From a virus, in IMG/VR virus record IMGVR_UViG_3300028581_000013: 64,000 nucleotides of DNA; one strand, written 5' to 3'. The notes beneath the pieces are model-generated. The model was not told the origin of the DNA. It saw only the letters and a list, made by a program, of their open reading frames with translations, and made no database searches. Each line of letters begins with the position of its first letter. Within the stretch, counting starts at the first letter, position 1. The position numbers were made by a program, and so were the translations under genes. Below are positions 36,207 through 64,000 of this stretch, in pieces.

Positions 36207-36228
36207 TTTTTTTTGAAAGTGGATTATT

Positions 36229-36825
36229 ATGTTATATGCGATTGCACCGTCACCAAATTTTGGCATAACAGAACAAGATTTCGTAACTTGGAATGGTGGG
36301 TTTACTGATGAAGAAATATCTAAGATAATAGAACTAGGAGATTCTTTAGAGAAAGAAGATTCTAAGATAGATGCTGGTGAGGTTTCTCCAAAAGATGTGC
36401 GAATAAGTGACATATCTTGGATACACCCCAGTGAAAAGAATGTATGGATATTTAATAAATTATCTTGGATATTAAGGCAGTTGAACGGACAATTTTATCG
36501 ATTTAATATTACTGGATTCAATGAATCTATACAATATACAACATATTATGGTAAACAAGAAGAAGGTGGTCATTATCGGTGGCACGCAGATCACGGACAA
36601 GATGCACCAAGAAAGTTATCAATGGTATTACAGTTGAGTGACCCAAGTGAATATGAGGGCGGTAATTTAGAAATATTGTCTAGTCAAGGAGAAGTATTGA
36701 CTGTAGATAAAAAGAAAGGATTTTTAGCAATGTTTCCTTCTTTTAAAACACACAGAGTAACACCAGTTACTTCAGGAATTAGAAAAAGTTTAGTAGTTTG
36801 GGCTACTGGTCCAGCGTTTGTATAA
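36229..36825 (+). CDS. 2OG-Fe(II) oxygenase (PKHD/prolyl-hydroxylase-like)
   Basis: HYRWHAD (HxD), RKLS..LQLS....YEGG.L, FPSF..HRVTPVTSG.RKSLV.W. Confidence 0.92.
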   Translation: MLYAIAPSPNFGITEQDFVTWNGGFTDEEISKIIELGDSLEKEDSKIDAGEVSPKDVRISDISWIHPSEKNVWIFNKLSWILRQLNGQFYRFNITGFNESIQYTTYYGKQEEGGHYRWHADHGQDAPRKLSMVLQLSDPSEYEGGNLEILSSQGEVLTVDKKKGFLAMFPSFKTHRVTPVTSGIRKSLVVWATGPAFV

Positions 36826-47505: not shown

Positions 47506-49373
47506 TGGCAATTACAACAGCAAGCCAATCTCAGATAGGACAAGAAACAGCCAAGAATAGTCAGATTGTTACAACATCTGTCAGATTGGTAAATTCTGGT
47601 GCGTCTACAGGTCCTTCTATTTCATCTATTGTTGTAACTGATAGTGGTTATAATACTTTAGATGATACGGCTGCTGCAATCAGCAATTCATATATTCGTA
47701 TTCTTGGTAGTAATTTCACTTCAACAGCGAATGTGTTTCTTAATGGTACGATGATACCAACAGCCAATGTTACATTTGTAAATTCATCAGAATTGAGAGC
47801 TCAATTACCTGTTTCAAACACAGGAAACTATGCAGTATCGGTTTACAATTCAAATTCATCAGGTGCTTTATACTCTAGTTCATTTGTTATTTCAACCATG
47901 CCACAATGGTTAACATCAACAACTTTAGCTAATGTAACATCTAATATTGCATTTTCTAATACATTATCCGCAACATCAGATTCATCAGTTACATACTCGA
48001 ATACCACAATACTACCAACAGGCTTTAATTTATTGTCCAATGGATATTATTATGGTACCATAACATCAGCTAATACTTATTCATTTGGTGTTAAAGCTAC
48101 AGATGTTGAAAATCAAGATTCTACCAGAACATTTAATTTAACTGTCAGTGCTTTTTTACCTGTGCCGACATCGATTGACTATTTGTTAATAGCAGGTGGT
48201 GGTGCAGGCGGAGGTTCTGGAACTGGTGGTACAGTTGATGGTGCCGGTGGTGGCGCTGGCGGTTGGTTAGAAGGAACAATAACAGGAAGTGGATTGGCTT
48301 ATACTGTTACGATAGGTGCTGGTGGTGCTTCAGGTTCACAAAGAGGTGACAATTCGACTTTAGCTAATTCTTCTATAACACGACTCACTTATGGTGGAGG
48401 TATGGGTGGCGGTGCAGGATCATCACAACCTTATTCTTATAATGGCCAAGATGGAGGTTCAGGTGGTGGCGGAGGAATACACAGCGGCGTAACAAATGTA
48501 GGAAATTCCATACAAACAAGTAATAATGGCGGAACTGGATATGGAAATGCTGGAGGCGCAAACCAAACCGGAGCTCCATATACTGGAGGTGGTGGTGGTG
48601 GAGCTGGAGCAGTAGGTGTTTCTGGAACTAGCGGAGGTGCTGGCGGTGCTGGAAAACAATGGTTAGATGGAACTTATTATGCTGGTGGTGGAGGTACAGG
48701 ATCTAACAGCTATGGAGCCGTTAACGGTCTTGGTGGCACCGGTGGTGGTGGCACAGGAGGCACTAGTGCTGGTTCAACAAATACTGGAGGAGGCGGTGGT
48801 GGTAGAATGTTTGCCGGTGGATCTGGTGTTTGTATATTCAGGTATCCTGATTCATTTGCACTTGCAACTTCAACAACTGGATCACCAACAGTAACAACTT
48901 CTGGTGGATACAGATATTATAAATTTACTTCTTCTGGAGCAATTACGTTTTTGCAATCATATAGATATTTTAGAGTAACATTAAATTCAGTAAATGGTGG
49001 CGGCTCGCAAGCTCAATTAACAGAATTATCATTTAGAGATAGTGCTGGAAATTATATCACACAAACATTATCTTCTCCTGTAGCTCCTAGTGCTGGATCA
49101 TTAACAAATCTGAATAATCAAAATGCTACAGCGCTGGACGATACTAATATGAATCCTCTGCCATTTGTAGTTGATTACGATATGGGATCTGAAAAATATG
49201 TAGGTACTGATGTAAAATTTTTACGAATAGGTAGTTCAGATGATTCTACCCGATATGTAAGTAATATAACAGTTAGTGCAAGTAATGATAATTTGAATTT
49301 TACAGAAATAATTAGTGGTACTCCGCCTAGTTATGCTGGTATAAGAGTGCTACAAAATTGGGCAATAGCTTAA
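47505..49373 (+). CDS. IPT/Ig stalk plus glycine-rich domain plus C-terminal discoidin-like domain (putative adhesin)
   Basis: DSGYNTLDDTAA stalk shared with the RCC1 proteins; YLLIAGGGAGG...YYAGGGG...GGSGVCIFRYP; YRYFRV. Confidence 0.72.
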   Translation: MAITTASQSQIGQETAKNSQIVTTSVRLVNSGASTGPSISSIVVTDSGYNTLDDTAAAISNSYIRILGSNFTSTANVFLNGTMIPTANVTFVNSSELRAQLPVSNTGNYAVSVYNSNSSGALYSSSFVISTMPQWLTSTTLANVTSNIAFSNTLSATSDSSVTYSNTTILPTGFNLLSNGYYYGTITSANTYSFGVKATDVENQDSTRTFNLTVSAFLPVPTSIDYLLIAGGGAGGGSGTGGTVDGAGGGAGGWLEGTITGSGLAYTVTIGAGGASGSQRGDNSTLANSSITRLTYGGGMGGGAGSSQPYSYNGQDGGSGGGGGIHSGVTNVGNSIQTSNNGGTGYGNAGGANQTGAPYTGGGGGGAGAVGVSGTSGGAGGAGKQWLDGTYYAGGGGTGSNSYGAVNGLGGTGGGGTGGTSAGSTNTGGGGGGRMFAGGSGVCIFRYPDSFALATSTTGSPTVTTSGGYRYYKFTSSGAITFLQSYRYFRVTLNSVNGGGSQAQLTELSFRDSAGNYITQTLSSPVAPSAGSLTNLNNQNATALDDTNMNPLPFVVDYDMGSEKYVGTDVKFLRIGSSDDSTRYVSNITVSASNDNLNFTEIISGTPPSYAGIRVLQNWAIA

Positions 49374-49416
49374 TTACAAAACAAATAAATAAACAATAAG
49401 AATAAAAGGTTTGTAA

Positions 49417-50481
49417 ATGCCAATATTAAAAATACTACCAGATGCAATCAGTAACACAGCAAGTTTTGTGTTTGGTAATGTTACTACCACTTCGATTACT
49501 GCTAATGGTGTGGATCTTGGTACAGCCGTTGCAGAAGCTTTTGTGTTGGCCAATACTGCAACCAATAATATTACAATTATTCAAGGTGTAAACACAGCAC
49601 AAAATACACGTATGTCAATCATCGAGGGTGTTGATACCACACAGAATACAAATATCACCATACTACAAGGTGTAGACACAACTCAAAACACCAATATAAC
49701 TGCTGCTGATACGAAAGCACAAGCTGCATTTAATAAAGCCAACGATGCTTACACTTTAGCCAATACAGCAAATGCAGCCGCAGGTTCAGGTGGTGCAGGT
49801 GGTGGTAGTTTAACTTCATTCACTGCAACAGTAGATACATTTACAGGTAATGGTAGTCAAACACAATTTACATTGTCTGCTGTGCCTGATTCTGAAGATA
49901 ACACATTTGTATTTTTAAATGGTGTCTATCAAGAAAAAGGCACATATTCTATCGCTGCTGCAAATGTTATTCTTACAGGCGTAGCAACAGCCAATGATAC
50001 AATAGAAGTGACCACAGTTGCTGGTAGTATTATGAATGTAAGCCCTACTGCTTACTCAACACGAATTTATCAAGGTAACGGATCAACCAACACATTTACA
50101 ATTTCAGTTGGACACACCGCAAATACAGTCATGGTGTTTAACAATGGTGTGTGTCAATTCCCTGGTGATGATTATACAGTAAGTGGTACAACATTAACCT
50201 ATGTGTTAACTCCACAATCAGATGAAACCATACAGATTCGTGAGATGCCAACTAATAAGTTGGTGCCATTAACACAACCTGTAATGCGTAGATACACAGC
50301 AAATGGTGCACAAACCTTATTTACTGTAACAGCAGGTCAAACAGCCAACTCAATGTTTGTATATGAAAACGGTATCTGTCAAGTGCCTGTATCAGATTAC
50401 ACAGTAAGTGGAGTAACATTAACATTTGTAACCGCACCAGTAGCCAATGTGGTCGTTCAAATTAGAGAGATGTCAATCTAA
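49417..50481 (+). CDS. fibre/hub protein with three tandem G(N/D)GS-type beta domains
   Basis: QGVDTTQNTNI repeats, then FTGNGSQTQFTL, YQGNGSTNTFTI and YTANGAQTLFTV, each with V..NG..Q. Confidence 0.72.
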   Translation: MPILKILPDAISNTASFVFGNVTTTSITANGVDLGTAVAEAFVLANTATNNITIIQGVNTAQNTRMSIIEGVDTTQNTNITILQGVDTTQNTNITAADTKAQAAFNKANDAYTLANTANAAAGSGGAGGGSLTSFTATVDTFTGNGSQTQFTLSAVPDSEDNTFVFLNGVYQEKGTYSIAAANVILTGVATANDTIEVTTVAGSIMNVSPTAYSTRIYQGNGSTNTFTISVGHTANTVMVFNNGVCQFPGDDYTVSGTTLTYVLTPQSDETIQIREMPTNKLVPLTQPVMRRYTANGAQTLFTVTAGQTANSMFVYENGICQVPVSDYTVSGVTLTFVTAPVANVVVQIREMSI

Positions 50482-50490
50482 GGATAAAAA

Positions 50491-52215
50491 ATGGCGTTTA
50501 CACAAATAACAACATCAAATTTAGATAATACAATTACTACAAAGTTAGCGGCAGCCGAAGCAGCCAATGCAGCCGTTGCAAACATTGTTTCTTTGGCCAT
50601 TAGTAGTGTGCAAATTGCCGATTCATCTTATAATGTTATAGATGATACAGCAGCTAATACAGGTGGTGGTTATTTGGTAATTAACGGAACGGGTTTTACG
50701 AATCAGTCTGTTGTTATTGTTGGTACGACTAATGCTACTAGTACCACATTTGCAAATACAAAACAGTTACGAGCTCAAGTTCCTGGCTTGGCTGCAGCAT
50801 CATATCCTTTATATGTGGTTGATAGTGTCACTGGTGCAACAGCAATTAAAGTAAATGGTATAACATACAGTTCATTTCCAGCATGGTCAACTGGATCATC
50901 GTTAAGTAATCAATCATCAAATGTAGCCTTCTCAGTTAGTTTAAGTGCAAACTCCGATTCATCAATAACTTATTCCAATACTACAGCATTACCAGCTGGT
51001 ACAACATTAGCTGCTAACGGATATTTTTCTGGTACAGTTTCTATTGGTGCTCAGACCACATATTCATTTGATGTGAAAGCCACCGATGCTGAAAATCAGG
51101 ATGTTTCTAGAACATTTAGCTTAACTGTCACAGTAATACCACAAACAAAATTATGGTTATGGGGTTCTGGTAGTTATGGAAAATTAGGTCAAAATAGTGA
51201 AACAAGTTATTCCAGTCCTGTTCAAGTTGGTTCAGGTACTACATGGAATAATATAGGAGCGGCCAATCATTATTTTGACAGCACACATACTTTAGCAACA
51301 AAAACGGATGGCACACTTTGGTCATGGGGTCGTAATAGTTATGGCCAATTAGGACAAAATAATACAGTTAATAGATCCAGTCCAATTCAAGTAGGAACAG
51401 GAACAAATTGGAACAGAGTAGCAGTAGGACCGCTTCATTCTTTAGCTACAAAAACTGATGGCACCTTGTGGTCTTGGGGAGTTACCAATGACGGCCGGTT
51501 AGGTGATGGCATTGGTAGTGGTAGTTATAAATCCAGTCCTGTTCAAGTTGGTTCAGGTACTACATGGAATCTAATATTAGCTTCAGAAAAAAATGGTTTG
51601 GCCACAAAAACTGATGGCACACTTTGGTCATGGGGCCATAATGGTTCTGGACAAATAGGAAACTTTAATACAACCACACAAACAACTCCACAGTTAATAG
51701 ATGGATCAGTATGGAGTTCGATAGCTCTTGGTGGTGCTCATTGTTTAGCTGTTAGATCAACAGATAATACTCTTTACGCATGGGGAAATAATGATACGGG
51801 CCAGCTAGGACGTAATAACGTGTCCAACGTTTCTAATCTAAGTCAAGTTGCAGGAACAACTTGGAGTAAAGTGGCTGCAGCTCAGAACCATAGTTTTGCA
51901 ATTAAAACTGATGGCACTTTATGGGCATGGGGAATGAATGCTTATGGTCAATTAGGAATTAACAATACAATTTATAGATCCAGTCCGGTTCAAGTAGGAA
52001 CAAATACAAATTGGAGTGAAATAAGCACCGGCCAAACACATGCTATAGCAATTAAAACTGATGGCACTCTTTGGTCATGGGGAGATGGTAGTAATGGAAA
52101 ACGAGGATTAAATTCAGGTATATCATCAAGTAGTCCAGTTCAAATAGGAACAAATACAAATTGGAGTAAAATTGTAGGTGGACATTCTCACACAATAGCT
52201 ATTACCTCAAATTAA
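50491..52215 (+). CDS. IPT/Ig stalk plus RCC1-like 7-blade propeller
   Basis: DSSYNVIDDTAANT stalk, LPAGTTLAANG Ig domain, seven blade repeats. Confidence 0.88.
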   Translation: MAFTQITTSNLDNTITTKLAAAEAANAAVANIVSLAISSVQIADSSYNVIDDTAANTGGGYLVINGTGFTNQSVVIVGTTNATSTTFANTKQLRAQVPGLAAASYPLYVVDSVTGATAIKVNGITYSSFPAWSTGSSLSNQSSNVAFSVSLSANSDSSITYSNTTALPAGTTLAANGYFSGTVSIGAQTTYSFDVKATDAENQDVSRTFSLTVTVIPQTKLWLWGSGSYGKLGQNSETSYSSPVQVGSGTTWNNIGAANHYFDSTHTLATKTDGTLWSWGRNSYGQLGQNNTVNRSSPIQVGTGTNWNRVAVGPLHSLATKTDGTLWSWGVTNDGRLGDGIGSGSYKSSPVQVGSGTTWNLILASEKNGLATKTDGTLWSWGHNGSGQIGNFNTTTQTTPQLIDGSVWSSIALGGAHCLAVRSTDNTLYAWGNNDTGQLGRNNVSNVSNLSQVAGTTWSKVAAAQNHSFAIKTDGTLWAWGMNAYGQLGINNTIYRSSPVQVGTNTNWSEISTGQTHAIAIKTDGTLWSWGDGSNGKRGLNSGISSSSPVQIGTNTNWSKIVGGHSHTIAITSN

Positions 52216-52221
52216 TTTCAA

Positions 52222-53772
52222 ATGACTCAATATGTCCGTGCGATTAATATTGCAAACAACTCAATCAAGTCTTTTGTATTTGATTCTGGTGTAGCAAACA
52301 CATTTAATGCCGCAGGTATTGCTAATGATTTGGCAATTGCTGCCAATGTGGCCGCACAAGCAGTTAATACATTTGTTACATTACAAACTCAAGAGCTTGC
52401 CGCTTTGCCTCCAACAATTAATGTAGTATCAGTTACAGATTCATCTTATAATGTTCTAAATATTGCCGAAGCCAATACCACCGGTGCATACTTACAAATT
52501 ACAGGTTCCAATTTTCAATCCGGCGCAATTGTTGTGGTTGGATCCAGTAACACCGCATTAACAACCACATTGGTGAATTCATCCACACTTAGAGCACAGA
52601 TTCCAGCCATCTCATCAGGAACTTATCCTGTATATGTGGTGAATAGTAGTGGCGGTACTGCAATTCGACCAAGAGGTTTAATAACAAGTGATTTTCCTGG
52701 TAGTCAATTGTCTAATCTATGGGGATGGGGAGAAAATTTTTTTGGACAATTAGGCACAAATGATGCAATTGCTAGGTCCAGTCCTGTTCAAATTGGTGAA
52801 GCTTATTTGTGGTCAAACGCTACTAGTGGAGCTGCACATACATTACTTTTAAAAGGAAAATCACCAACAAAAACTTTGTGGGCGATGGGTCGAAATTTTC
52901 GTGGTAACTTAGGATTAAATGATATAATTAATAGGTCCAGTCCAACTCAAATTGGTACAGGAAATTGGTCTTCCATAAGCATTGGTTATTATTTTTCTGC
53001 AGGCATTAAAACTGATGGTACATTGTGGACATGGGGTTATGGTAATTATGGCGCTTTAGGATTAAATAGTATAACCGATAGGTCCAGTCCAACTCAAGTT
53101 GGCACAATGACAAATTGGGCTCAAATTAAAACTGCAGCATACAATCTTTATGCTATTAAAACCGATGGCACGGCATGGGCTTGGGGTCCAGGATATGCAA
53201 TTGGCAACAATTCGACAATTGATAGGTCCTCTCCGGTCCAAATTGGTGCGTTAACAAATTGGTTAAAATTCTCCGAAAGTCCTTGTGATACGGCCTATCC
53301 TGCAGCTATTAAAACAGATGGTACACTATGGGTATGGGGATCAAATTCTTTAGGCGAACTTGGATTAAATAACAAAATTAATAGGTCCAGTCCGGTACAA
53401 ATAGGTACAGGTACTTGGAATACAATTTCAACATCAAGAAATTCTGTAGGTATTAAAACTGATGGCACACTATGGACTTGGGGATGGAATAATACCGAAT
53501 ATGGATCATTAGGTTTAAATGATTCAATTCAGAGATCCAGTCCAGTTCAAGTTGGAGTAGAAACAACTTGGTTAAATGCCGTGTGTGATTATCATGGAGT
53601 AACGGCATTAAAATCTAACGGCACACTATGGTCTTGGGGAAATAACGGTAATGGTCAATTAGGACAAAACGATATAAATAACAGATCCAGTCCTGTTCAA
53701 ATTGGAACAGCAACAGATTGGAGTGAAGTATATGCTGGACACTACTCATCAATCGCAAAAAGAAATGCATAA
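52222..53772 (+). CDS. IPT stalk plus RCC1-like 7-blade propeller
   Basis: Seven RSSP(V/T)Q(I/V)G repeats; lacks the second Ig domain. Confidence 0.88.
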   Translation: MTQYVRAINIANNSIKSFVFDSGVANTFNAAGIANDLAIAANVAAQAVNTFVTLQTQELAALPPTINVVSVTDSSYNVLNIAEANTTGAYLQITGSNFQSGAIVVVGSSNTALTTTLVNSSTLRAQIPAISSGTYPVYVVNSSGGTAIRPRGLITSDFPGSQLSNLWGWGENFFGQLGTNDAIARSSPVQIGEAYLWSNATSGAAHTLLLKGKSPTKTLWAMGRNFRGNLGLNDIINRSSPTQIGTGNWSSISIGYYFSAGIKTDGTLWTWGYGNYGALGLNSITDRSSPTQVGTMTNWAQIKTAAYNLYAIKTDGTAWAWGPGYAIGNNSTIDRSSPVQIGALTNWLKFSESPCDTAYPAAIKTDGTLWVWGSNSLGELGLNNKINRSSPVQIGTGTWNTISTSRNSVGIKTDGTLWTWGWNNTEYGSLGLNDSIQRSSPVQVGVETTWLNAVCDYHGVTALKSNGTLWSWGNNGNGQLGQNDINNRSSPVQIGTATDWSEVYAGHYSSIAKRNA

Positions 53773-53777
53773 ATTAC

Positions 53778-55586
53778 ATGGCAAAAATAACAGCAAACAA
53801 TATCCTCGCATCATCAATTACTTCAGATAAACTTGATTCATCTGTTGCAAGTGGTTTAGCTACTGCAACTAATGCAAACACTCTTGCAACTATTGCTACT
53901 GCTGTGGCAGCTGCTGCTTTTGCAACTGCAAATACCAATGCAGCCATACTGGCAAACTCAGCATCTCCACTAATTACTACAATTCAAATTGCAGATTCAT
54001 CTTATAATATTTTAGATGATACGGCAGCCAATACTACTGGTGGATATGTTGTTATTACTGGATCAGGATTTACCAATAGTTCAACTGTGGTATTTGGATC
54101 AACTGCGGCTCCTGCGGTATCTTTTGTAAATTCAACAACACTCAGAGCACAAGTTCCAGCACTCACAGCGGCTTCATATCCTGTATATGTCGTTAACAGT
54201 AATGGAGGTACAGGTATTCGAATTAATGGATTGACAACAAGTTCATTCCCAGCATGGAGCACCGGTGCAACATTAAGTAACCAAAATGCCAATACATCTT
54301 TTTCTGTTAATCTGAGCGCAAACTCCGATTCATCAATAACTTATGCAAACACCACATCGCTACCTGCTGGTACTACATTGGCCGCTAACGGATTATTTTC
54401 TGGTATTGTAACAATTGGTACACAAACAACTTACACATTCGATGTGAAAGCAACTGACGTTGAAAATCAAGATGCAAGTCGTACATTTAGTTTGACGGTA
54501 ACGATAGGTCCAGCGCCAGGATTATATGTGTGGGGTTTTCATTCTGGGAATGGAGAAGATGGATTAAATATTGGTTCTTCTTCTAAATCCAGTCCAACAC
54601 AAGTAGGAACAGATACAAATTGGAATCAAATAAGTACGGCAAGGTATTCTGTGTTGGCCACCAAAACTGATGGTACCCTATGGTCATGGGGAAATAATAG
54701 TAATGGTCAATTAGGACATAATGATCGAGTCAATAGATCCAGTCCTGTACAAATTGGAACAAATACCAATTGGTCATTGATAAGTATCAGCCCCTATTTC
54801 TTTGCAGCTATCAAAACCGATGGTACTTTATGGACATGGGGACAAAATGATTCTGGTCAACATGGCCGCAATGATAGAGTTAACCGATCTAGTCCAGTTC
54901 AAGTATCAGGAACTACTTGGAGTAAAATAGGTGTTGGTCGAGTGGGAGTTGTATCGGCCACCAAAACTGATGGTACTTTATGGATGTGGGGAATTAACGA
55001 AGAAGGCCAATTAGGAAGAAATGATAGAGTTACCCGATCCAGTCCAATACAAGTAGGATCAGATACAACTTGGAGTCAAGCAAAACTCGGAGATAATTAT
55101 ACTATAGCCACCAAAACTAATGGCACACTATGGAGTTGGGGATATAATAACAATGGCCAATTAGGAAGAAATGATACAGTTCGTAGGTCGAGTCCAGTAC
55201 AAATTGGAGCAAATACCAATTGGAGTTTAAATAATTTTGTTATCGGTGCACCCGGTCCTATACAAGCAGCTACTAAAACTGATGGTACTTTATGGACATG
55301 GGGAAAAAATGATTTTGGCCAATTAGGACACAATAATCGAGGTGTTTATAGATCCAGTCCAACACAAGTAGGAACAGAAACAAATTGGAGTTTAATTAGT
55401 GGAGGTGCGTATAGTTTTACGGCCACCAAAACAGATGGCACATTGTGGTCTTGGGGACAAAATAATTATGGCCAATTAGGAAGAAATGATAAAGTTACCC
55501 GATCCAGTCCAATACAAGTAGGATCAGCAACAAATTGGACTTTAGTTAGTATGGGGCCTTACGCCGGGTTTGCCAAATTATCATAG
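53778..55586 (+). CDS. IPT/Ig stalk plus RCC1-like 7-blade propeller
   Basis: Seven SSP.Q / TKTDGTLW.WG repeats. Confidence 0.88.
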   Translation: MAKITANNILASSITSDKLDSSVASGLATATNANTLATIATAVAAAAFATANTNAAILANSASPLITTIQIADSSYNILDDTAANTTGGYVVITGSGFTNSSTVVFGSTAAPAVSFVNSTTLRAQVPALTAASYPVYVVNSNGGTGIRINGLTTSSFPAWSTGATLSNQNANTSFSVNLSANSDSSITYANTTSLPAGTTLAANGLFSGIVTIGTQTTYTFDVKATDVENQDASRTFSLTVTIGPAPGLYVWGFHSGNGEDGLNIGSSSKSSPTQVGTDTNWNQISTARYSVLATKTDGTLWSWGNNSNGQLGHNDRVNRSSPVQIGTNTNWSLISISPYFFAAIKTDGTLWTWGQNDSGQHGRNDRVNRSSPVQVSGTTWSKIGVGRVGVVSATKTDGTLWMWGINEEGQLGRNDRVTRSSPIQVGSDTTWSQAKLGDNYTIATKTNGTLWSWGYNNNGQLGRNDTVRRSSPVQIGANTNWSLNNFVIGAPGPIQAATKTDGTLWTWGKNDFGQLGHNNRGVYRSSPTQVGTETNWSLISGGAYSFTATKTDGTLWSWGQNNYGQLGRNDKVTRSSPIQVGSATNWTLVSMGPYAGFAKLS

Positions 55587-55619
55587 TTCCACATGATATT
55601 GTAAAATACCTTAACAACA

Positions 55620-55648
55620 TTGCCATCAATCCAAGTATCATATATAAT
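55620..55648 (+). promoter_or_regulatory. sigma70-type promoter for the modification cluster
   Basis: TTGCCA (55620-55625), 17 nt, TATAAT (55643-55648). Confidence 0.7.
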
Positions 55649-55680
55649 AGTGTGAATTAATTATTTGAAAGGTTTTACCA

Positions 55681-57441
55681 GTGAAAAACATATATTTTCT
55701 TTCAGGACTTCCACGTTCTGGTTCAACAGTATTGGCTGCTATTCTTAGCCAAAATCCAAGCATTCATGCCACATCCACTTCTAATCTTTTAGATACCCTA
55801 GTAGGTACTCTAAGAGCATGGGCTGATAGTTTGACCACTAGAGCTCAAACGGATCAGAAAAAGGAAGAAGAAAAGATTCAGCATGTTTTAAATAACATCT
55901 GTAAAACTCAATATCATGACATTGATAAACCCATCATTCTTGATAAAGCTAGAGGTTGGGCTGATGATACGAACATGCGTACCATGTCTAAAGTTCTTGG
56001 ACATAAACCTAAAATTATTGCCACAGTTCGTAATGTAGAAGATTGTGCCGCTTCTTTTGTTCGTGTGGCTAAACCAAAAAATTTGGATCATTTTTTACTC
56101 AAAGATGACCTGATTAAACACCTCAAAGAATCATATCAAACATTTGAAAAAGGATATTCATTTGCACCTGAATGTTTTTTAATTATTGACTATGATGATC
56201 TGATGAATGATCCACAAAAAGAATTAAAACGAGTTCATGAGTTTTTAGAATTACCAGATTTTGAATATGATTTAAATGCCATTGATGGTACCAATCTACA
56301 AGAAAAAGATGAAGAAATTTGGGAAGTAAAAGGCCTTCATGATGTTAAACCAAAATTAGGTTATCAACACAAAGAAGATTCTAAAGATGTATTGAAGCAT
56401 CGTTATTATGAATTCGTACAACCAAGATTTTGGTTAGGAGAAAAAGTTGCCAATAAACCTATTCACGACCTTGATTTACAGTTGGCTGCTGGTCTAATGG
56501 GTAACTTTGAAGAAGGTTGGAAGATAGCACAGAAATTAGAGAAAGAAGAACCATGGAATAATCGTGCCGCTTTTAATCGTGGTTGGTATCTCATGCAACA
56601 TGGTAAACTTTTAGAAGGTGAAAAACTATTGTTCCGTGGTCGTGACGAAGGAGTGTTTGGTAATGAACCACCAAAATCACCAATGCCAATGTGGGACGGC
56701 AAATCAAAAGGTACCGTATTATTAAATCTAGAAGGTGGATTAGGTGACCAGATACACGGAGTTCGTTACGCAAGGGATATTGCAAAGATTGCTGGAGAAG
56801 TGATTGTGGCGTGTTCCGGTTCGTTGGCGACACTATTCCGTGATATAGAAGGAGTCGTGGCGGTCTGCCAGAGTGATGCTGTATATGGTATTGTACATGA
56901 TTATTGGGCACCATCCATGTCCACGATACCCATTCTTGGTTACGAATACAAGGACATATCAGGAAAACCATACATAAATAAACCATTAGTAGAACCACAT
57001 AAAGGTTTGAGAATCGGTCTACGGTGGCAAGGTAATCCACAGTTCGAACATGAACAACATCGGATATTCCCACCAACAAAACTATTTGATGCCTTAGAAG
57101 ATGTTGATGCAGAATTTATATCACTGCAACGAGATGAGGGTTCTCAATACAAACCATATTGGGTAAAAGAAGTACCACTAGGTCATTGGGAAGAAACACG
57201 AATAGCGGCTGCATCATGTGATTTAATTATCACATCATGTACCTCTGTTGCACATCTCTGTGGTGCCATGGGAATACCAACATGGATTGTAGTACCTAAA
57301 TTGCCTTACTATTTGTGGGCTCCACCAGGAAACACAACAGTCTGGTATGATTCGGTGAAGCTGTATCGCCAAGAAGTATTTGGAGAATGGTCTGCTCCAT
57401 TTGATCAGATCAAAGTCGATTTACAAAATTTTAAAAAGTAA
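55681..57441 (+). CDS. sulfotransferase fused to TPR-like and GT-B (GT9-like) glycosyltransferase domains
   Basis: GTG start; FLSGLPRSGSTVL (PAPS-binding loop), ATVR....CAASF; EGGLGDQI, IGLRWQGNP, FISLQ, DLIITSCTSVAHLCGAMGIPTW. Confidence 0.85.
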   Translation: MKNIYFLSGLPRSGSTVLAAILSQNPSIHATSTSNLLDTLVGTLRAWADSLTTRAQTDQKKEEEKIQHVLNNICKTQYHDIDKPIILDKARGWADDTNMRTMSKVLGHKPKIIATVRNVEDCAASFVRVAKPKNLDHFLLKDDLIKHLKESYQTFEKGYSFAPECFLIIDYDDLMNDPQKELKRVHEFLELPDFEYDLNAIDGTNLQEKDEEIWEVKGLHDVKPKLGYQHKEDSKDVLKHRYYEFVQPRFWLGEKVANKPIHDLDLQLAAGLMGNFEEGWKIAQKLEKEEPWNNRAAFNRGWYLMQHGKLLEGEKLLFRGRDEGVFGNEPPKSPMPMWDGKSKGTVLLNLEGGLGDQIHGVRYARDIAKIAGEVIVACSGSLATLFRDIEGVVAVCQSDAVYGIVHDYWAPSMSTIPILGYEYKDISGKPYINKPLVEPHKGLRIGLRWQGNPQFEHEQHRIFPPTKLFDALEDVDAEFISLQRDEGSQYKPYWVKEVPLGHWEETRIAAASCDLIITSCTSVAHLCGAMGIPTWIVVPKLPYYLWAPPGNTTVWYDSVKLYRQEVFGEWSAPFDQIKVDLQNFKK

Positions 57442-57453
57442 TAGGAGATAGTA

Positions 57454-57876
57454 ATGCCAACAAGATCAGGTTATAATGTTCGAGTTCAGAATGGTAAGGT
57501 AACAGATTGCTGGGATACACCAGCACCAGAAGGTCAATCCGGTTGGAGTGCAGCCGTAGAGATTACTCCAGACCTCACACCTAACCGTGAAATTCTTACA
57601 ACACATACATTTGATATTACCAAAAATCCAATTGAGATTGTTTGGGGTAAGCGTGAGTTGTCAGTTGATGAGCGTAAAGGTTCTTTAATTGGTCAAGCCA
57701 ATTTTGAAGTAATTCGTTTAGAAAACCAATTGCAAATGAAGCGTAATATACCAGAGTTTGCTGACCAAATCTCCACACTTGAAGCTGAAATTGAAGCCGC
57801 CAAGTCAACTAGAGATGCTCGTGTTATTCAAGTTAATGCAGCCGCTACACATGAGGATGTTGACGCACTAATGTAA
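57454..57876 (+). CDS. hypothetical protein, possibly fibre-assembly related
   Basis: SD GGAG; C-terminal helix ending VNAAATHEDVDALM, reminiscent of DUF4376-type proteins. Confidence 0.55.
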   Translation: MPTRSGYNVRVQNGKVTDCWDTPAPEGQSGWSAAVEITPDLTPNREILTTHTFDITKNPIEIVWGKRELSVDERKGSLIGQANFEVIRLENQLQMKRNIPEFADQISTLEAEIEAAKSTRDARVIQVNAAATHEDVDALM

Positions 57877-57893
57877 TTTTTTGAAAGTTTGTT

Positions 57894-58610
57894 ATGAATT
57901 CTTTGTTTTTTTCGTATAATATGGATGTAGATAAGGCTTACATCATTCGGGTTAAAGATAATAAAAAATCTGAAGATGTGGCCTTACGATGTGCCGAATC
58001 TTGTAATCAAGTAAAAATGCCTTACGAGTATTGGGATGCGTATGATGGTTATTCTCGGCGCATCAAAGAGCCGGAACATTCTAAAAATAGTTCAGTAATG
58101 AAAATGATGAAAATCACAGATCATTACTTGACGAGAGGTGAAGTGGCTTGTGCATTGTCCCATATTTCTTTGTGGGCTAAGTGTGTTGAGATAGACCAAC
58201 CAATTGTTATTTTAGAACATGATTCGATTATGGTTCAACCATATCTCAAGCATGCCGTATTTAATTCAATCGCATATCTAGGTAATAATGAACAGGTCAA
58301 CGGTGGTTGGCCAGTTCTACCAACACCTACTCATGCATCAGAAGGACCAAACTATCATTTTATTTGTAGGGCTCATGCATATGCCATTGATCCTGCTGTG
58401 GCAAAAAATATGATTTCTCATGTAATTAAATTTGGTATCTGTGCGCCATTAGATATCATTCTTCGAGCCGATATATTTCCAATTTATCAGATGGGTATCT
58501 ACGCCTATGATGTTAAAGAAAGAGAAGAAGATGGTAATCTTAAAACAACCATACTTGGCAGACCTCTAGAAGGCCGTTCAACAATTCGTAATGATAGATT
58601 AGAAACATGA
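57894..58610 (+). CDS. glycosyltransferase family 25
   Basis: WDAYDG, LTRGEVACALSH..LW..C......IVILEHD, AHAYAI.P..AK, PLD. Confidence 0.85.
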   Translation: MNSLFFSYNMDVDKAYIIRVKDNKKSEDVALRCAESCNQVKMPYEYWDAYDGYSRRIKEPEHSKNSSVMKMMKITDHYLTRGEVACALSHISLWAKCVEIDQPIVILEHDSIMVQPYLKHAVFNSIAYLGNNEQVNGGWPVLPTPTHASEGPNYHFICRAHAYAIDPAVAKNMISHVIKFGICAPLDIILRADIFPIYQMGIYAYDVKEREEDGNLKTTILGRPLEGRSTIRNDRLET

Positions 58611-59188
58611 AATTAACCGTAAGATTCCACGACCACACAATTAGAAGTTTTCAACACATTGTAAGTTCAATTGGCTTTCCAAAAGTATCAATTGAAATAG
58701 GATGTTTTGAAGGTGACAGCACATTTAACATAACTGGTATTTGTCATCAACAAAATTCAAATTATAAACATTACGCAATTGATCCATACGACAATAGTGA
58801 TGACTTGCCTGAAAAAAATATACCACAGACCAAAGAAATGTTTTTAAGTAACTTAGAAGAATTTGAACCTAAAGGTGTGGTGGAGTTTATTAATAAAAAA
58901 TCTTTTGATGGATTGATTGACTTATATAATCGTGGTGTCAAAGCCGATTTTATCTATGTTGATGGAGATCACCGAGCACCAGGTGTATTACAAGATTGTG
59001 TTTTAGGATTTGAATTGTTGAATAAAGGTGGTGTAATGTTATTTGATGACAGTATGGTGTGGAGAAAAGATAACAACCCATGCAACTCGCCTAAAATGGC
59101 AGTAGATAATTTCATGCAATGTTATTGGGATAAATTAGAAATTTTTGAGTTACCTAGTGGTTATCAATCTGCTGTTCGTAAATTATGA
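58607..59188 (+). CDS. class I SAM-dependent methyltransferase (Methyltransf_24-like)
   Basis: IEIGCFEGDS, AIDPY, DFIYVDGDH, LL.KGGVMLFDD. Confidence 0.88.
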   Translation: MKLTVRFHDHTIRSFQHIVSSIGFPKVSIEIGCFEGDSTFNITGICHQQNSNYKHYAIDPYDNSDDLPEKNIPQTKEMFLSNLEEFEPKGVVEFINKKSFDGLIDLYNRGVKADFIYVDGDHRAPGVLQDCVLGFELLNKGGVMLFDDSMVWRKDNNPCNSPKMAVDNFMQCYWDKLEIFELPSGYQSAVRKL

Positions 59189-60018
59189 TTCATGTTGTAT
59201 TAAGGACTTGTAATAGAACTTCTCTACAGTCCGATAGAATAGTAAATAAATCTGAATGTATTCTTCGGTGTTTAAATTCAATTATCACCAATCTCAAAAA
59301 TATACCAGAAAAATCATTACACATTATTGATGATAACTCTGTTGCTGAATTTCAGGACATACTTAAAGAACTGATTCAACCACACGATTTCGTCACAATC
59401 AATTTTTTACCACCAAGAAATCAAGAAGGATTATCACCTAAGAAAAAATCTAGGCACTCAGTTCAAGTAGCCTACGAATACATCTACAATTTACCTGATG
59501 ATGATTTGGTGTACATTGTAGAAGATGACTATCTACATTTTTCAGGTGCCATTGGTGAAATGATTGAATCGTGGACATATCTTTCATCGGTTACTGGTTT
59601 AGAAATAGGTATTTTTCCACAAGATTTCAATCAACTATATTATCATCCAAGTCATCCATATAATGAAACATATTATAGGCCATGTTTTGTTGTTCCTACA
59701 CAGCATAGATATTATAGAAGCACATGGTTTACACAAGAATCATTTATGATTCAAGCCAAGATATTTAAAAAGTATAAAGAACACTTTGATAAGTTATTAA
59801 TTATTGGTGAAAAAGAACATCATTGGGAAGGTAACACGATATCCACGGTGTGGAATAAACCAGAATTTAAAATGTTTATGCCAATGGGTTCACTAGTGGT
59901 ACATATGTCAAACAAAATGGACATACCGTTTTATATAACGAAAGATGCCGTAATTAAATTATGGGAAGAAAACAAAACATACTGGTCGTTGGAACAGGAT
60001 TCTCAGGTTCAGTTATAA
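59185..60018 (+). CDS. putative GT-A fold glycosyltransferase
   Basis: CLNSI, HIIDDNS, VYIVEDDYLH (DxD-like). Confidence 0.72.
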   Translation: MIHVVLRTCNRTSLQSDRIVNKSECILRCLNSIITNLKNIPEKSLHIIDDNSVAEFQDILKELIQPHDFVTINFLPPRNQEGLSPKKKSRHSVQVAYEYIYNLPDDDLVYIVEDDYLHFSGAIGEMIESWTYLSSVTGLEIGIFPQDFNQLYYHPSHPYNETYYRPCFVVPTQHRYYRSTWFTQESFMIQAKIFKKYKEHFDKLLIIGEKEHHWEGNTISTVWNKPEFKMFMPMGSLVVHMSNKMDIPFYITKDAVIKLWEENKTYWSLEQDSQVQL

Positions 60019-60962
60019 CCAGAGAACTGGCCAATCGTGGTTACAATATTACCATAATTGACCAAAGAGGCCATATTGGTGGCAACTGTTATGATGAGAT
60101 GATAGATGGTGTTCTAGTACACCGCTACGGACCGCACATCCTACACACAAATAACAATAGAGTAATTGAATGGTTGTCCCAATACACCGAATGGGTACCA
60201 TACCAACATAAAGTCAAAGCATATCACAAAGGCCAATATCTAACTTTACCACCTAATTTGGAAACACAAAAAATATTAGGTGATAAATTGTTTGAAACTC
60301 TGTATGTGCCTTATTCTAAAAAGATGTGGGGCTTGCCGACCGATAAGATTGATAGTAGTATATTAAATCGTATCAAACTAAGAAATGATTTAAACGAATT
60401 ATATTTTCCAAATGATGAATACCAATGCCTACCCAAAGGTGGTTATAATAAACTATTTGGAAATATATTAAATCATTCAAATATAAAAATAAAATTAAAC
60501 ACCAAGTTTTCTAAAGAAATGGAAACTGAATATGATTTTGTTTTTAATTCAATGGCAATAGATGAGTATTATGATTACTGTCATGGTGAATTACCATATC
60601 GGTCAATCAAGTTTCATTTTACCGATAAATCTTACTTTGATATGCCAACATCGGTAGTTAATTTTACGGATGATGGACCATATACACGCATTACAAAATG
60701 GGAATTGTTTCCTGAACATGGATTTGGTGAGAGATATACATTAGAAGAACCTTGTGATTACCGAGATAATAATTATGAACGGTATTATCCAGTAAAAGAT
60801 TCAGAAGGTTTAAATCGAGCAATATATAATAAGTATAAGGACATAAAAAACGACAAGGTCCAGTTTATTGGTAGATGTGGATTGTATGTTTATATCGATA
60901 TGGATATGGCAATCAGTTCATCATTGGCAATCGTTGATAATTTTATTAAGGAACAAATATGA
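59961..60962 (+). CDS. glf: UDP-galactopyranose mutase
   Basis: VVGTGFSG, R.HIGGNCYD, VHRYGPHILHT, YS.K.WG, P..GY, LPYRS, YTRI, RYYP, F.GR...Y.Y.DMD. Confidence 0.93.
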   Translation: MGRKQNILVVGTGFSGSVITRELANRGYNITIIDQRGHIGGNCYDEMIDGVLVHRYGPHILHTNNNRVIEWLSQYTEWVPYQHKVKAYHKGQYLTLPPNLETQKILGDKLFETLYVPYSKKMWGLPTDKIDSSILNRIKLRNDLNELYFPNDEYQCLPKGGYNKLFGNILNHSNIKIKLNTKFSKEMETEYDFVFNSMAIDEYYDYCHGELPYRSIKFHFTDKSYFDMPTSVVNFTDDGPYTRITKWELFPEHGFGERYTLEEPCDYRDNNYERYYPVKDSEGLNRAIYNKYKDIKNDKVQFIGRCGLYVYIDMDMAISSSLAIVDNFIKEQI

Positions 60963-61789
60963 AAAAGATTTTAATTATGGGTTTACCTGGTGCCGGTAAA
61001 ACATTTTTGGCTGAAGCATTGAAAAAATACCTAGAAAAACATGGTGAACGAGCCGATTATGGTGAAATGTTACCTATCACAGGATTTAATGCTCAAGTAA
61101 CTTGGTTCAATGCTGATGATGTTCGTAAAAAATTCAATGATTGGGATTTCTCTAAAGAAGGACGTATTCGGCAATCATTAAGAATGGCACAGTTTGCATT
61201 TGAAGCTGGTGGTGATTATGTTATTTGTGATTTCGTGGCACCTATTCCAGAGATGAGAAACAATTTCAAAGCCGATTGGACAATTTGGGTTGACACAATT
61301 GAAGCTGGTCGTTATGAAGATACTAATAAAATGTTTGTACCACCAGATGTATATGACTTCCGTGTTACAGAACAAAATGCGGAGAAATGGGCTGAGTTTA
61401 TTGGTAATCACATTATTGAAAATCGTAGGCGTCCTGTGTTTGACTGGAAGAAAGAAACAGTTCAAATGTTGGGTCGCTGGCAACCATGGCATGAAGGTCA
61501 CCGAGCATTGTTTGACCGAGCCATTGCCAAAACTGGTCAGGTAGTCATTCAAATTCGAGATTGCCAAGGATGGCAAGGTTCTAATCCGTTTGCCATTGAA
61601 CAAGTTAAATCGTATATCCGTAGAGATTTGGATCCAATCTATCAAGGCCAATACGAGATTCAAGTGGTACCTAATATCGTCAATATCACCTATGGTCGTG
61701 ATGTAGGATACAAAATCGAACAAGAAACCTTTGATAAATCAATCACCGACATTTCAGCCACCAAGATTCGTAAGCAAATGGGAGTCTAA
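60959..61789 (+). CDS. cysC: adenylylsulfate (APS) kinase-like domain fused to HxGH nucleotidyltransferase domain
   Basis: MGLPGAGKT P-loop, NADDVR....DWDFS.EGR.RQ, CDFVAP; C-domain LGRWQPWHEGH and ISATKIRKQM. Confidence 0.78.
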   Translation: MKKILIMGLPGAGKTFLAEALKKYLEKHGERADYGEMLPITGFNAQVTWFNADDVRKKFNDWDFSKEGRIRQSLRMAQFAFEAGGDYVICDFVAPIPEMRNNFKADWTIWVDTIEAGRYEDTNKMFVPPDVYDFRVTEQNAEKWAEFIGNHIIENRRRPVFDWKKETVQMLGRWQPWHEGHRALFDRAIAKTGQVVIQIRDCQGWQGSNPFAIEQVKSYIRRDLDPIYQGQYEIQVVPNIVNITYGRDVGYKIEQETFDKSITDISATKIRKQMGV

Positions 61790-61791
61790 CC

Positions 61792-61834
61792 AAATGTGGA
61801 TGATTTATAAATATAGTATAAATCACCCATATTT
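61792..61834 (+). promoter_or_regulatory. 18-bp inverted repeat enclosing a T4 late promoter
   Basis: AAATGTGGATGATTTATA-aatatag-TATAAATCACCCATATTT; TATAAATA at 61806-61813. Confidence 0.7.
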
Positions 61835-61848
61835 TAGGATAGATTCAA

Positions 61849-63576
61849 ATGACCACAAAGATTCTTGGAAACCAGATCACCAGTTACACAATTGACACAG
61901 TACAATTAAGTAATACAGCCACGGCAGCCTTTGCCAAAACACTAGCACCTAAAGTTCTCTATGCCAACGTGGCCAGTAATACCTTTACAGTATTAAATGA
62001 TACAGCGGTTAACGTAGGTGGTGGTTACATTGTTGTTACTGGTGCCGAATTTCAATCTGGTGCCACCATATTAATCGACACAACTCCTGCTTCAGCCGTT
62101 ACATATGTAAATTCAACAACACTACAAGTTCAAGTTCCTACAAAATCAGCGGCATCTTATAATCTTTATGTGGTTAATCCTGATGGTGGCGTTGGTATTA
62201 AAGTTGCTGGTATCACATACAGCTCTGAACCTTCTTGGATCACTGCAAGTCCATTGGCAAATCAAGAAGCCAATACAGCCTTTGGTGTTAACCTTAGTGC
62301 TACTAGTGCAACATCTTATTCTTTAGCAGCCGGCTCTACATTACCAACCGGTACAACATTAGCTGCCAACGGATATTTCTCTGGTACAGTTTCTATTGGT
62401 GCTCAAACCACATACACATTTAGTGTTGTAGCTACAGATGCTGAGTTACAAGATTCAAGCAAAACATTCCAAGTAACTGTGACACTAACACCGCTGACAA
62501 GATTATATTCTTGGGGTATGAATGGATTTGGTGTTGGAGGTTTAAATACAAGTGGGGGATACACGCTTAGTCCAACACAAGTAGGAACAGGAACAACTTG
62601 GAAGTCAGTAAGTAGCCGTGCAACCAATTCTGCAGCTATCAGAAACGATGGTACTCTATGGACTTGGGGATACAATACTAATGGCCAGTTAGGTCATAAT
62701 GATACAGTTTACGCCAGATCCAGCCCAACACAGGTAGGAACAGCAACAACATGGAACCTTGTTAGTGTTGGTAACTACAGTATTATGGCCACCAAGACTG
62801 ACGGCACCTTGTGGTCCTGGGGCGTTAACACACAAGGACAGTTAGGACTTGGTAATACAGTTGCCAGATCCAGTCCAGTACAAGTAGGAGCAGGAACAGA
62901 TTGGTACCGTATTGACACTTCTTCAGCATCTTCTATTGCTATCAAAACTGATGGCACATTGTGGGCTTGGGGCCAAGGCTACATGGGCAAATTAGGACTT
63001 GGCGATACAGTTGATAGATCCAGCCCCGTACAGGTGGGTGCAAATACCACGTGGAATAGAATAAGTATTAGCACCTCTCAGTGTTTAGCTATTAAGACTG
63101 ACGGTACCTTGTGGGCATGGGGCAGAAATGACAACTACGGTTCTTTAGGACTCAACGAAATTTCAACTTATACAAAACTCAGTCCTACACAAATTGGTAC
63201 ATCAACTAATTGGAGTCTGGTTAGTGGTGGAGAGTATGGTTCTATGGCCACCAAGACTGACGGTACTTTGTGGACCTGGGGTCGCAATAATGTTGGACAG
63301 TTAGGACTCGGTAACATCAGTAATAGGTCCAGCCCAACACAGGTGGGAACAGGAACAAATTGGAATTTAATAAGTGCATCTTCAACCGGTAGTCAGAATA
63401 GATTGGCCACCAAGACAGATGGCACAATGTGGGCCTGGGGTGACAATAGTAACGGGCAGTTAGGACAAAATAATCAAACCAACCGATCCAGTCCTGTGCA
63501 AGTGGGAGCAAGCACCACGTGGAGTTTTATAAGTGCAGGACGAGGTGTTCTTGCCATTACTTCAATTGCTCCATAA
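61849..63576 (+). CDS. IPT/Ig stalk plus RCC1-like 7-blade propeller
   Basis: LNDTAVNVGGGY stalk, LPTGTTLAANG, seven blade repeats. Confidence 0.88.
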   Translation: MTTKILGNQITSYTIDTVQLSNTATAAFAKTLAPKVLYANVASNTFTVLNDTAVNVGGGYIVVTGAEFQSGATILIDTTPASAVTYVNSTTLQVQVPTKSAASYNLYVVNPDGGVGIKVAGITYSSEPSWITASPLANQEANTAFGVNLSATSATSYSLAAGSTLPTGTTLAANGYFSGTVSIGAQTTYTFSVVATDAELQDSSKTFQVTVTLTPLTRLYSWGMNGFGVGGLNTSGGYTLSPTQVGTGTTWKSVSSRATNSAAIRNDGTLWTWGYNTNGQLGHNDTVYARSSPTQVGTATTWNLVSVGNYSIMATKTDGTLWSWGVNTQGQLGLGNTVARSSPVQVGAGTDWYRIDTSSASSIAIKTDGTLWAWGQGYMGKLGLGDTVDRSSPVQVGANTTWNRISISTSQCLAIKTDGTLWAWGRNDNYGSLGLNEISTYTKLSPTQIGTSTNWSLVSGGEYGSMATKTDGTLWTWGRNNVGQLGLGNISNRSSPTQVGTGTNWNLISASSTGSQNRLATKTDGTMWAWGDNSNGQLGQNNQTNRSSPVQVGASTTWSFISAGRGVLAITSIAP

Positions 63577-63649
63577 AATAATATGAAAAAACTTTTAATT
63601 ACTCTACTCTTAACCTATCACTAAAAATTAATACAATTTCTTTTTTGTC

Positions 63650-64000
63650 ATGACATACTCTCAGCTTCCTTTTAATGGACAAACCAAGATTATCAATGGT
63701 GTCAGCTATGTGTATACGTCTGCAAATAATTCTTGGACTGTAGGCACAGGTATACCAAGTTCAACCGAAATTGTTTATGCTGATGTTGTATACATTACTA
63801 GCACCAATGGTATAAATTTTTCTGATGGTACAAGACAAACCACAGCGGTAGCATTAGACTCTTGGGTTCGTGGCCATGCAAATGCTTCTTATAATACAGC
63901 CAATGCTTCGTTTACAAAAGCAAATACTGGTGTAACACTAGCACAAGCTGCTTATGATTTTGCCAATAATTTAAGTGGTGGTACCGCACAAGACGGATTT
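63650..64000 (+). CDS. fibre protein, truncated by the window end (paralog of 45828-47165)
   Basis: Own translation: MTYSQLPFNGQTKIINGVSYVYTSANNSW...FSDGTRQTTA...ANASYNTANASFTKAN; open to the window end. Confidence 0.75.
   Translation, partial: MTYSQLPFNGQTKIINGVSYVYTSANNSWTVGTGIPSSTEIVYADVVYITSTNGINFSDGTRQTTAVALDSWVRGHANASYNTANASFTKANTGVTLAQAAYDFANNLSGGTAQDGF

Follow-up and report, generated by a model that had tools for sequence, protein, structure and literature searches.

Why does a phage carry enzymes for building, methylating and sulfating a glycan among its receptor-binding genes? This question is raised by a run of seven open reading frames (ORFs; o1 to o7, 55681-61789, all on the + strand) with RCC1-propeller fibre genes on either side, found in a 64,000-nucleotide (nt) stretch of viral DNA, hereafter the window, from IMG/VR record IMGVR_UViG_3300028581_000013. 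Judging from domains, solubility and gene linkage, we hold with moderate confidence that the cassette serves the cytoplasmic glycosylation, methylation and sulfation of RCC1 receptor-binding proteins, with 3'-phosphoadenosine 5'-phosphosulfate (PAPS) supplied by the phage. A first-pass annotation of the window had described the cluster, and each of its domain calls stands, as does the placement of RCC1 fibre genes on both flanks. Its statement that stops and starts mostly overlap is correct for four of the six junctions (by 4 nt in three cases and by 58 nt for o5/o6, 59961-60018), while at the remaining two the ORFs stand 12 and 17 nt apart. The features are as follows.

53778..55586, +, RCC1-propeller fibre protein, probable acceptor, directly upstream (Pfam RCC1 / WD40_RLD plus TIG, He_PIG)
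55620..55648, +, sigma70-like promoter site TTGCCA-17-TATAAT in the 94-nt gap ahead of o1 (11/12 matches)
55681..57441, +, o1, sulfotransferase (1-260), TPR-like linker (263-323) and GT9-like domain (344-586) (Pfam, AlphaFold model and motifs)
57454..57876, +, o2, 140 residues, no known family; conserved C-terminal ATTHE(E/D)VDAL
57894..58610, +, o3, GT25 glycosyltransferase (Pfam PF01755)
58607..59188, +, o4, class I S-adenosylmethionine (SAM) methyltransferase, Methyltransf_24, CmcI / rhamnosyl O-methyltransferase-like (Pfam)
59185..60018, +, o5, GT-A (GT2-like) glycosyltransferase (Pfam GT2 and motifs)
59961..60962, +, o6, UDP-galactopyranose mutase (Glf), short form of 333 residues (Pfam GLF PF03275)
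60959..61789, +, o7, kinase-like domain for adenosine 5'-phosphosulfate (APS; 1-157) and a 110-residue HxGH nucleotidyltransferase (167-276) resembling NadM-type nicotinamide mononucleotide adenylyltransferases (NMNATs) (Pfam, fold and motifs)
61849..63576, +, RCC1-propeller fibre protein, probable acceptor, directly downstream (Pfam RCC1 / WD40_RLD plus TIG, He_PIG)

In the order of steps that we propose, the TPR-like linker and GT9-like domain of o1 would attach the first sugar to a fibre protein, and o2 would serve o1 specifically, as a partner, adaptor or chaperone. The GT25 enzyme would extend the glycan, in this lineage together with the GT-A enzyme, which Glf would feed with UDP-galactofuranose (UDP-Galf), and o4 would O-methylate it. 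The sulfotransferase domain of o1 would sulfate the product, drawing on PAPS made from APS by the o7 kinase; the small nucleotidyltransferase domain of o7 may make the APS.

The record as a whole is a 136-kb entry with an estimated completeness of 82% and derives from a T4-like water phage that has not been cultured. Upstream of the cassette lie T4-type baseplate and fibre genes (gp6-, gp7-, gp8- and gp48-like families) and, further upstream of 53778, more genes that combine RCC1 with TIG or He_PIG Ig-like domains. The closest cultured homologues of gp6 are those of cyanophages, at ~30% identity, and the cassette and the baseplate block, used as DNA queries, found no match in 50,697 phage records.

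Domains and motifs of the cassette proteins

The o1 gene encodes 586 residues from a GTG start, which is preceded 8 nt upstream by a GAAAGG ribosome-binding site and is placed identically in homologues. Its residues 6-194 match Pfam Sulfotransfer_3 (PF13469) with 70.4 bits against a cut-off of 27 (E 3e-19). In the AlphaFold model (predicted local distance difference test score, 85), the sulfotransferase occupies residues 1-260 and is followed by four TPR-like helices (263-323) and a GT9-like fold (344-586). Both by sequence (E 2e-8) and by fold, the first module is closest to tyrosylprotein sulfotransferase (TPST; Z 16.4) and to CurM/Ols-type Sulfotransfer_3 domains (CurM, Z 15.5, within ~1 Z). 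The PAPS-binding motifs common to both are kept, with the loop P11 R12 S13 G14 S15 T16 and the pair R117...S125 invariant in 18 o1 homologues (46-96% identity) and aligned with the corresponding PRSGST and R...S motifs of TPST2. However, the two glutamates of the TPST2 segment CGEE, one of which we take to be the catalytic base, fall on T33 and S34 of o1 (in a single alignment), and carbohydrate sulfotransferases score only ~3 Z lower (~13.5); the acceptor of this domain may be a Tyr or a sugar.

The GT9-like domain of o1 superposes best on WaaC (Z 15.7, root-mean-square deviation 3.2, 229 residues aligned), followed by WaaF (14.7) and TibC (14.3, obtained with residues 329-586), and Foldseek matches of the C-terminal half include SPY and OGT with TM-scores of ~0.24. 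Its GGLGDQIH motif is invariant in the 18 homologues and contains D356, presumably the counterpart of WaaC Asp13. GT9 enzymes usually carry an Asp at the position before the counterpart of T521-S-V-A-H-L; in o1 and its homologues this residue is an invariant Cys. The TPR-GT9-like part matches more than 1,800 environmental protein clusters. In a scan of 185,579 species genomes, homologues of o1 (44-57% identity) were found only on contigs of metagenome-assembled genomes from unrelated phyla (L140-L157: Saccharibacteria, Woesearchaeota, Phycisphaerales, Acidithiobacillus and others); misbinned phage contigs are the probable explanation, and we do not claim cellular homologues.

As for o2, which follows the fused o1 in 75 loci, it has no usable Pfam or PDB sequence match. 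Its Atlas leads to tail-assembly chaperones are weak, all below 0.9, and we have not built on them. A complex prediction for o1 with o2 gave a score of 0.00, which has no bearing for or against contact. The C-terminal consensus of o2, ATTHEEVDAL, includes EEVD. This is the peptide of Hsp70 and Hsp90 that is bound by TPR clamp domains, and the EEVD of o2 may be a handle for the TPR-like linker of o1.

The four proteins that follow, o3 to o6, retain their catalytic motifs in 8-39 homologues each. The GT25 enzyme o3 scores 60 bits with PF01755 against a cut-off of 24, the match covering only profile positions 19-100 of 199. It carries LEHD where EDD is usual, LEHD being invariant in 39 sequences, and both LEHD and TRGEVACALSH are invariant in its homologues from 49 loci (60-96% identity). 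Its sequence matches in the PDB are weak (a GT25 protein, procollagen galactosyltransferase and mimivirus R655), and it also weakly matches the PHROG family phrog_61, annotated as a 2-oxoglutarate (2OG)-Fe(II) oxygenase. The methyltransferase o4 (Methyltransf_24, 58.7 bits) keeps EIGxFEG and DGDH in 21 homologues. The GT-A enzyme o5 reaches 23.7 bits with Pfam GT2, barely above the cut-off of 23.3; its DDxS and EDD motifs are conserved, and its scores with Atlas viral GT2 clusters are 0.98-0.99. Finally, o6 scores 151.8 bits with Pfam GLF and 224 bits with the Deinococcus radiodurans mutase (3HDQ), of which it keeps the GxGxxG motif and the aligned Y, W, R, Y, R and YYPV positions. Since it lacks ~36 residues of the helical domain present in solved mutases, its TIGR00031 score of 270 bits lies under the cut-off of 303.75. 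Its start cannot be moved downstream because GxGxxG begins at residue 11.

Catalytic motifs are kept in homologues down to 23-60% identity. No membrane segment was found in any of the seven proteins (no 19-residue Kyte-Doolittle window reaches 1.6), no signal peptide was apparent by eye, and Pfam recognised no flippase, polymerase, Gtr-type or lipid-carrier enzyme among them.

Linkage across viral loci and the target of the cassette

We compared the cassette with 135 loci from two scans of viral contigs, using tblastn, jackhmmer and clustering. These loci are not phylogenetically independent and some lie on the same contig, so the counts below overstate the number of independent events. Eighty loci combine a GT9-like domain with 1.5 kb or more of sequence upstream. 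An RCC1 gene ends no more than 250 nt before the GT9-like gene in 64 of the 80, and lies upstream of it or within 1.2 kb downstream in 74, while o2 is present in 63. RCC1 ORFs are also found in the stretch downstream of o1 in 38 loci, typically between o2 and GT25. The association with RCC1 fibre genes that the first-pass annotation had put forward is thus borne out.

A second linkage emerges from 61 loci with o7 and at least 4 kb of upstream sequence. A gene with the sulfotransferase domain lies upstream of o7 in 48 of these, being fused to the GT9-like domain in 27, split from it in nine and stand-alone in 12. One of the 13 o7 loci lacking a sulfotransferase is cut by the contig end, and two more have a divergent sulfotransferase-like ORF scoring 26 bits against the cut-off of 27. 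Since the 12 stand-alone loci have the kinase and the sulfotransferase with neither a GT9-like domain nor an RCC1 gene, the kinase tracks the sulfotransferase. In the whole o7-anchored set, none of 13 sulfotransferase loci devoid of the GT9-like domain has an RCC1 gene, which shows that RCC1 genes track the GT9-like domain and o2, not sulfation.

The other components come and go. The recurrent core consists of o1, o2 and GT25, joined in some loci by the methyltransferase, the kinase or both (o2 in 75 loci, GT25 in 49, the methyltransferase in 25, GT-A in 12 and Glf in 10). Glf and GT-A are restricted to the closest relatives (~10-12 loci), whose Glf is at least 80% identical to that of the window, and the galactofuranose part of the pathway drawn by the first-pass annotation is accordingly no conserved feature. 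Other relatives have instead an FkbM methyltransferase, a PfkB kinase, an epimerase, a cytidylyltransferase-cupin protein or a DXD glycosyltransferase, and accessory genes in relatives also include Gly_transf_sug. Independent distribution of the genes across relatives had been named in that annotation as the result that would speak against one joint pathway. We find the cassette to be modular rather than one fixed pathway, whereas the two linkages, GT9-like/RCC1 and kinase/sulfotransferase, hold.

What, then, is the acceptor? The helical linker of o1 and the conserved o2 suggest protein recognition, and fold neighbours of the C-terminal half of o1 include TibC, SPY and OGT, which glycosylate proteins. 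Taken together with the soluble enzymes, the lack of lipid-carrier or export genes and the adjacency to RCC1 genes, they point to modification of RCC1 proteins in the cytoplasm, before assembly, and the gene context favours the virion over the host surface as the target.

Several observations weigh against this reading. The assignment of the target is drawn wholly from gene neighbourhood. GT9 and GT25 are classically families of the lipopolysaccharide (LPS) or lipooligosaccharide (LOS) core, and WaaC stands slightly above TibC as a fold match of o1. No Pfam family matches residues 251-586 of o1 at E up to 10; as the Glyco_transf_9 and TPR models are both silent, its TPR and GT labels come from structure and motifs. 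In many o1 loci no kinase lies nearby even though the flanks are long, and neither of two cultured phages with o7 homologues, Sano and DLP_6, has a Sulfotransfer_3 gene in its record. The cassette's own sigma70-like site, finally, would permit expression early in infection, before fibres are made.

With its -35 box at 55620, the position at which the first-pass annotation begins the cluster, this site is the top match in the 15 kb scanned (49000-64000), and the number of sigma70-like sites across the region does not exceed that in shuffled sequences. Close relatives keep its -10 part and the downstream leader, and only one of them (L003) keeps the -35 box. As for late expression, the T4 late-promoter word TATAAATA is not enriched, occurring 3 times in the window where 8 copies would be expected. 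Each copy lies on the + strand (40651, 53673 and 61806), 22-100 nt before the fibre starts at 40680, 53778 and 61849; the last, at 61806-61813, is 36 nt ahead of the start of the downstream RCC1 gene.

The strongest competing explanation is remodelling of the host envelope (LPS/LOS core, capsule or glycolipid) by these enzymes in the course of infection, for example against superinfection or to keep progeny from sticking to debris, with the fibre region being simply a hot spot of gene gain. The family membership of the GT9-like domain (WaaC, Z 15.7) and of GT25 would fit, since soluble enzymes of the LPS/LOS core work at the inner membrane face. So would the sigma70-like site right before o1, and the epimerase, PfkB kinase, FkbM methyltransferase and Gly_transf_sug genes of relatives, which are typical of surface-polysaccharide loci. 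However, chance placement would not yield an RCC1 gene beside the GT9-like gene in 74 of 80 loci, often between o2 and GT25. Moreover, the seven genes include no membrane protein, flippase or lipid-carrier enzyme, and in distant relatives o1 abuts the preceding RCC1 gene, leaving no space for a promoter of its own. On balance we regard envelope remodelling as unlikely and prefer decoration of the RCC1 proteins.

The o7 protein and the presumed supply of PAPS

If RCC1 proteins are sulfated, PAPS is needed, and o7 is the candidate source. Its residues 1-157 match Pfam APS_kinase (PF01583) with 32.4 bits against a cut-off of 21.1, whereas the NCBIfam equivalog TIGR00455 yields only 22.7 against 138.7, which makes o7 a divergent member of the APS kinases. 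A profile search of the PDB nevertheless puts APS kinases first (E 2e-6), as does Foldseek, in which the first 16 rows are all APS kinases or APS-kinase domains. In VIA-align over 48,161 chains the top five matches are again all APS kinases (Z 16.4-13.8, 22-29% identity), with gluconate kinase next (Z 13.2) and shikimate kinases also behind. Alignment places D53, R56, F64 and R69 of o7, all of them invariant, on the D, R, F and R by which PAPSS1 and APE1195 bind APS. The departures from the APS-kinase motifs are the first Asp of DGD, replaced by Asn, and the Ser of ISP, replaced by Ala. The APS-kinase label of the first-pass annotation is therefore backed by fold, motifs and gene context, and we consider that o7 probably acts as an APS kinase.

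Whether the phage can also make APS is a different matter. The second domain of o7 (167-276, the last 37 residues being poorly modelled) is a shortened NadM-type NMNAT-like domain with GRWQPWHxGH and ISATKIR motifs, and its nearest relatives are NadM-type NMN adenylyltransferases (E 4e-5 to 6e-4). At E up to 0.1, the ATP sulfurylase family (PF01747) matches nothing in the 136-kb record, and the lone trace of it is a sub-threshold 16.5-bit match in a homologous ORF of another locus (L228). A PfkB-type sugar (heptose) kinase was likewise not recognised in the record. The pathway had been called self-contained by the first-pass annotation, which these two absences make an overstatement: UDP-Galf formation and the conversion of APS to PAPS are the only donor steps clearly encoded by the phage, and the presumed sugar donors of the GT9-like, GT25 and GT2 enzymes, as well as SAM, must come from the host.

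Environmental sequences offer a lead on the small domain. At least 8,000 environmental protein clusters match o7, and its nucleotidyltransferase domain belongs to a family of 1,115 representative clusters. One of these proteins (P0266 / P0391, 311 residues) combines an N-terminal mini HxGH domain, 44% identical to that of o7 (E 2e-36), with a C-terminal canonical CysC-type APS kinase (213 bits). This order is the reverse of that in o7; seven proteins make up the cluster, which was seen on several contigs measuring up to 36 kb. A scan of viral contigs with P0266 returned only kinase-nucleotidyltransferase fusions and split forms, the latter with the two domains encoded by separate overlapping genes. 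The small domain has thus been fused twice, independently, to APS kinases, which suggests that the two catalyse consecutive steps, i.e., that o7 is a minimal PAPS synthase. This idea is weakened by four o1 loci that have the kinase domain alone, by Sano and DLP_6 with no Sulfotransfer_3 gene, and by the closeness of the nucleotidyltransferase to NMNATs. We therefore rate adenylylation of sulfate by this domain as possible, at somewhat less than even chances. The boldest version, in which one protein of 276 residues would turn sulfate and ATP into PAPS, its 110-residue nucleotidyltransferase forming a new minimal class of ATP sulfurylase, and would feed sulfated, methylated glycans on RCC1 propellers in what would be the first sulfated virion, is doubtful as a whole.

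Three single metagenome proteins (P0262, P0267 and P0275) join the mini-nucleotidyltransferase to fragments of chorismate synthase, 3-dehydroquinate synthase or ubiquitin hydrolase; these may be chimeric gene calls. Near o7 homologues, we also noted a TauD-family dioxygenase directly upstream (L123:8966-9994), a TctC-type binding protein with a divergent sulfotransferase-like ORF (L125:7101-8710), a NodU/CmcH-type carbamoyltransferase (L134:7969-9450) and, 3 kb upstream in phage Sano (L137), an annotated cysteine dioxygenase gene.

Could o7 have nothing to do with sulfation? It might be a two-step enzyme, resembling NadR or coenzyme A synthase, for another 3'-phosphorylated or adenylylated nucleotide, in which case the sulfotransferase would use host PAPS. 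The NMNAT-like C-terminal domain is in keeping with this. So are the homologues in Sano and DLP_6, which have 36-40% identity and lie in early-gene regions, the four loci with the kinase domain alone, and L228:2986-3752, where kinase (139 residues) and nucleotidyltransferase (116 residues) are separate overlapping genes. This last pair directly follows a family B DNA polymerase gene and precedes MT-A70, radical SAM and RecA genes, and no sulfotransferase was found among the eight products of that locus that were scanned. However, the kinase matches APS kinases first by sequence and fold and keeps the aligned D, R, F and R, 48 of 61 loci have the sulfotransferase gene upstream and two others a 26-bit candidate, and the mini-nucleotidyltransferase is also fused, in reverse order, to a canonical APS kinase. 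A role unrelated to sulfation thus seems even less likely than envelope remodelling, and we retain o7 as the presumed source of PAPS for the cassette. An HldE-like role, in which o7 would supply an ADP-sugar to the GT9-like domain, was considered and rejected because o7 also accompanies stand-alone sulfotransferases where the GT9-like domain is missing.

The remaining alternative, by which part of the cassette, GT25 above all, would modify a collagen-like fibre in the manner of procollagen galactosyltransferase after hydroxylation by a P4H-like oxygenase, has a candidate substrate at 34449-36206 (a protein with seven G-X-Y runs), a 2OG-Fe(II) oxygenase gene directly downstream of it (36229-36825; PF13640, 58 bits) and the weak matches of o3 to procollagen galactosyltransferase, mimivirus R655 and phrog_61, but it is quite improbable given that GT25 lies ~20 kb away, stays with o1, o2 and RCC1 genes in 49 loci and matches collagen enzymes in the PDB at E 0.8-0.9 only. 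The pair at 34449-36825 looks in itself like a possible hydroxylated collagen fibre, and two further 2OG-Fe(II) oxygenases are present in the record, one of them at 1091-1690 of the window.

Relation to known systems and significance

The closest analogies to decoration of RCC1 proteins would be the heptosylation of adhesins by TibC/TibA and the glycosylation of virions by mycobacteriophages. In TibC/TibA and Aah/AIDA-I (PDB 4rap, 4rb4), a soluble enzyme of GT9 fold is likewise encoded beside a repetitive surface adhesin, which is glycosylated in the cytoplasm, and the proximity of the GT9-like gene to RCC1 genes in 74 of 80 loci is analogous to that of heptosyltransferase and adhesin genes, with RCC1 as the putative substrate. 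In contrast to TibC, the GT part of o1 spans ~243 rather than ~380 residues, and o1 adds a TPR-like linker and a fused sulfotransferase; in contrast to TibA and AIDA-I, which are beta-helical autotransporters, the neighbours here are phage RCC1 propellers.

Mycobacteriophage-encoded glycosyltransferases decorate the phages' own structural proteins (Freeman et al. 2023, PMC10527164, as described in PMC12619734). According to that description, the targets are capsid and tail-tube C-termini, and sulfate is not among the modifications. Here, by contrast, the presumed targets are receptor-binding propellers, and sulfation, methylation and donor supply would be added.

SPY and OGT resemble o1 in placing a helical-repeat module before a GT-B catalytic domain that acts on proteins. 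FlmG of Caulobacter is another TPR-linked protein glycosyltransferase. However, o1 has four helices where SPY and OGT have many TPRs, and its catalytic domain resembles GT9 more than GT41. Similarly, PAPS synthases (animal PAPSS1/2 and the Sat-APS kinase of Aquifex, PDB 2gks) fuse an APS kinase, a fold that o7 matches at Z 14.8-16.4, to a nucleotidyltransferase of the HxxH superfamily, with the kinase at the N terminus in PAPSS as in o7, but the second domain of o7 has 110 residues and is nearest to NadM-type NMNATs, not to the Sat-type ATP sulfurylase of ~390 residues.

Literature searches on phage or viral sulfotransferases returned no description of such a cassette; a match to RCC1 proved to be the prefix of the Roscoff culture collection rather than the protein, and PMC12801897 contained nothing pertinent. 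What the window contributes is the fused sulfotransferase-TPR-GT9 protein together with o2, the lineage-specific extension by Glf and GT-A, the two separable linkages of GT9-like genes with RCC1 and of the kinase with the sulfotransferase, and the mini-nucleotidyltransferase in reverse-order fusion to a canonical APS kinase.

Beyond the cassette, o7 is a simple candidate for a very small PAPS synthase. If RCC1 receptor-binding proteins are indeed decorated in this way, the host range, adsorption and particle stability in water of such phages would hinge on chemistry to which the fibre sequence by itself gives no access, with consequences for predicting hosts from metagenomes and for interpreting hypervariable fibre genes. 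Since the families of both o7 and the TPR-GT9-like part of o1 are abundant in environmental DNA, this effect would be widespread.

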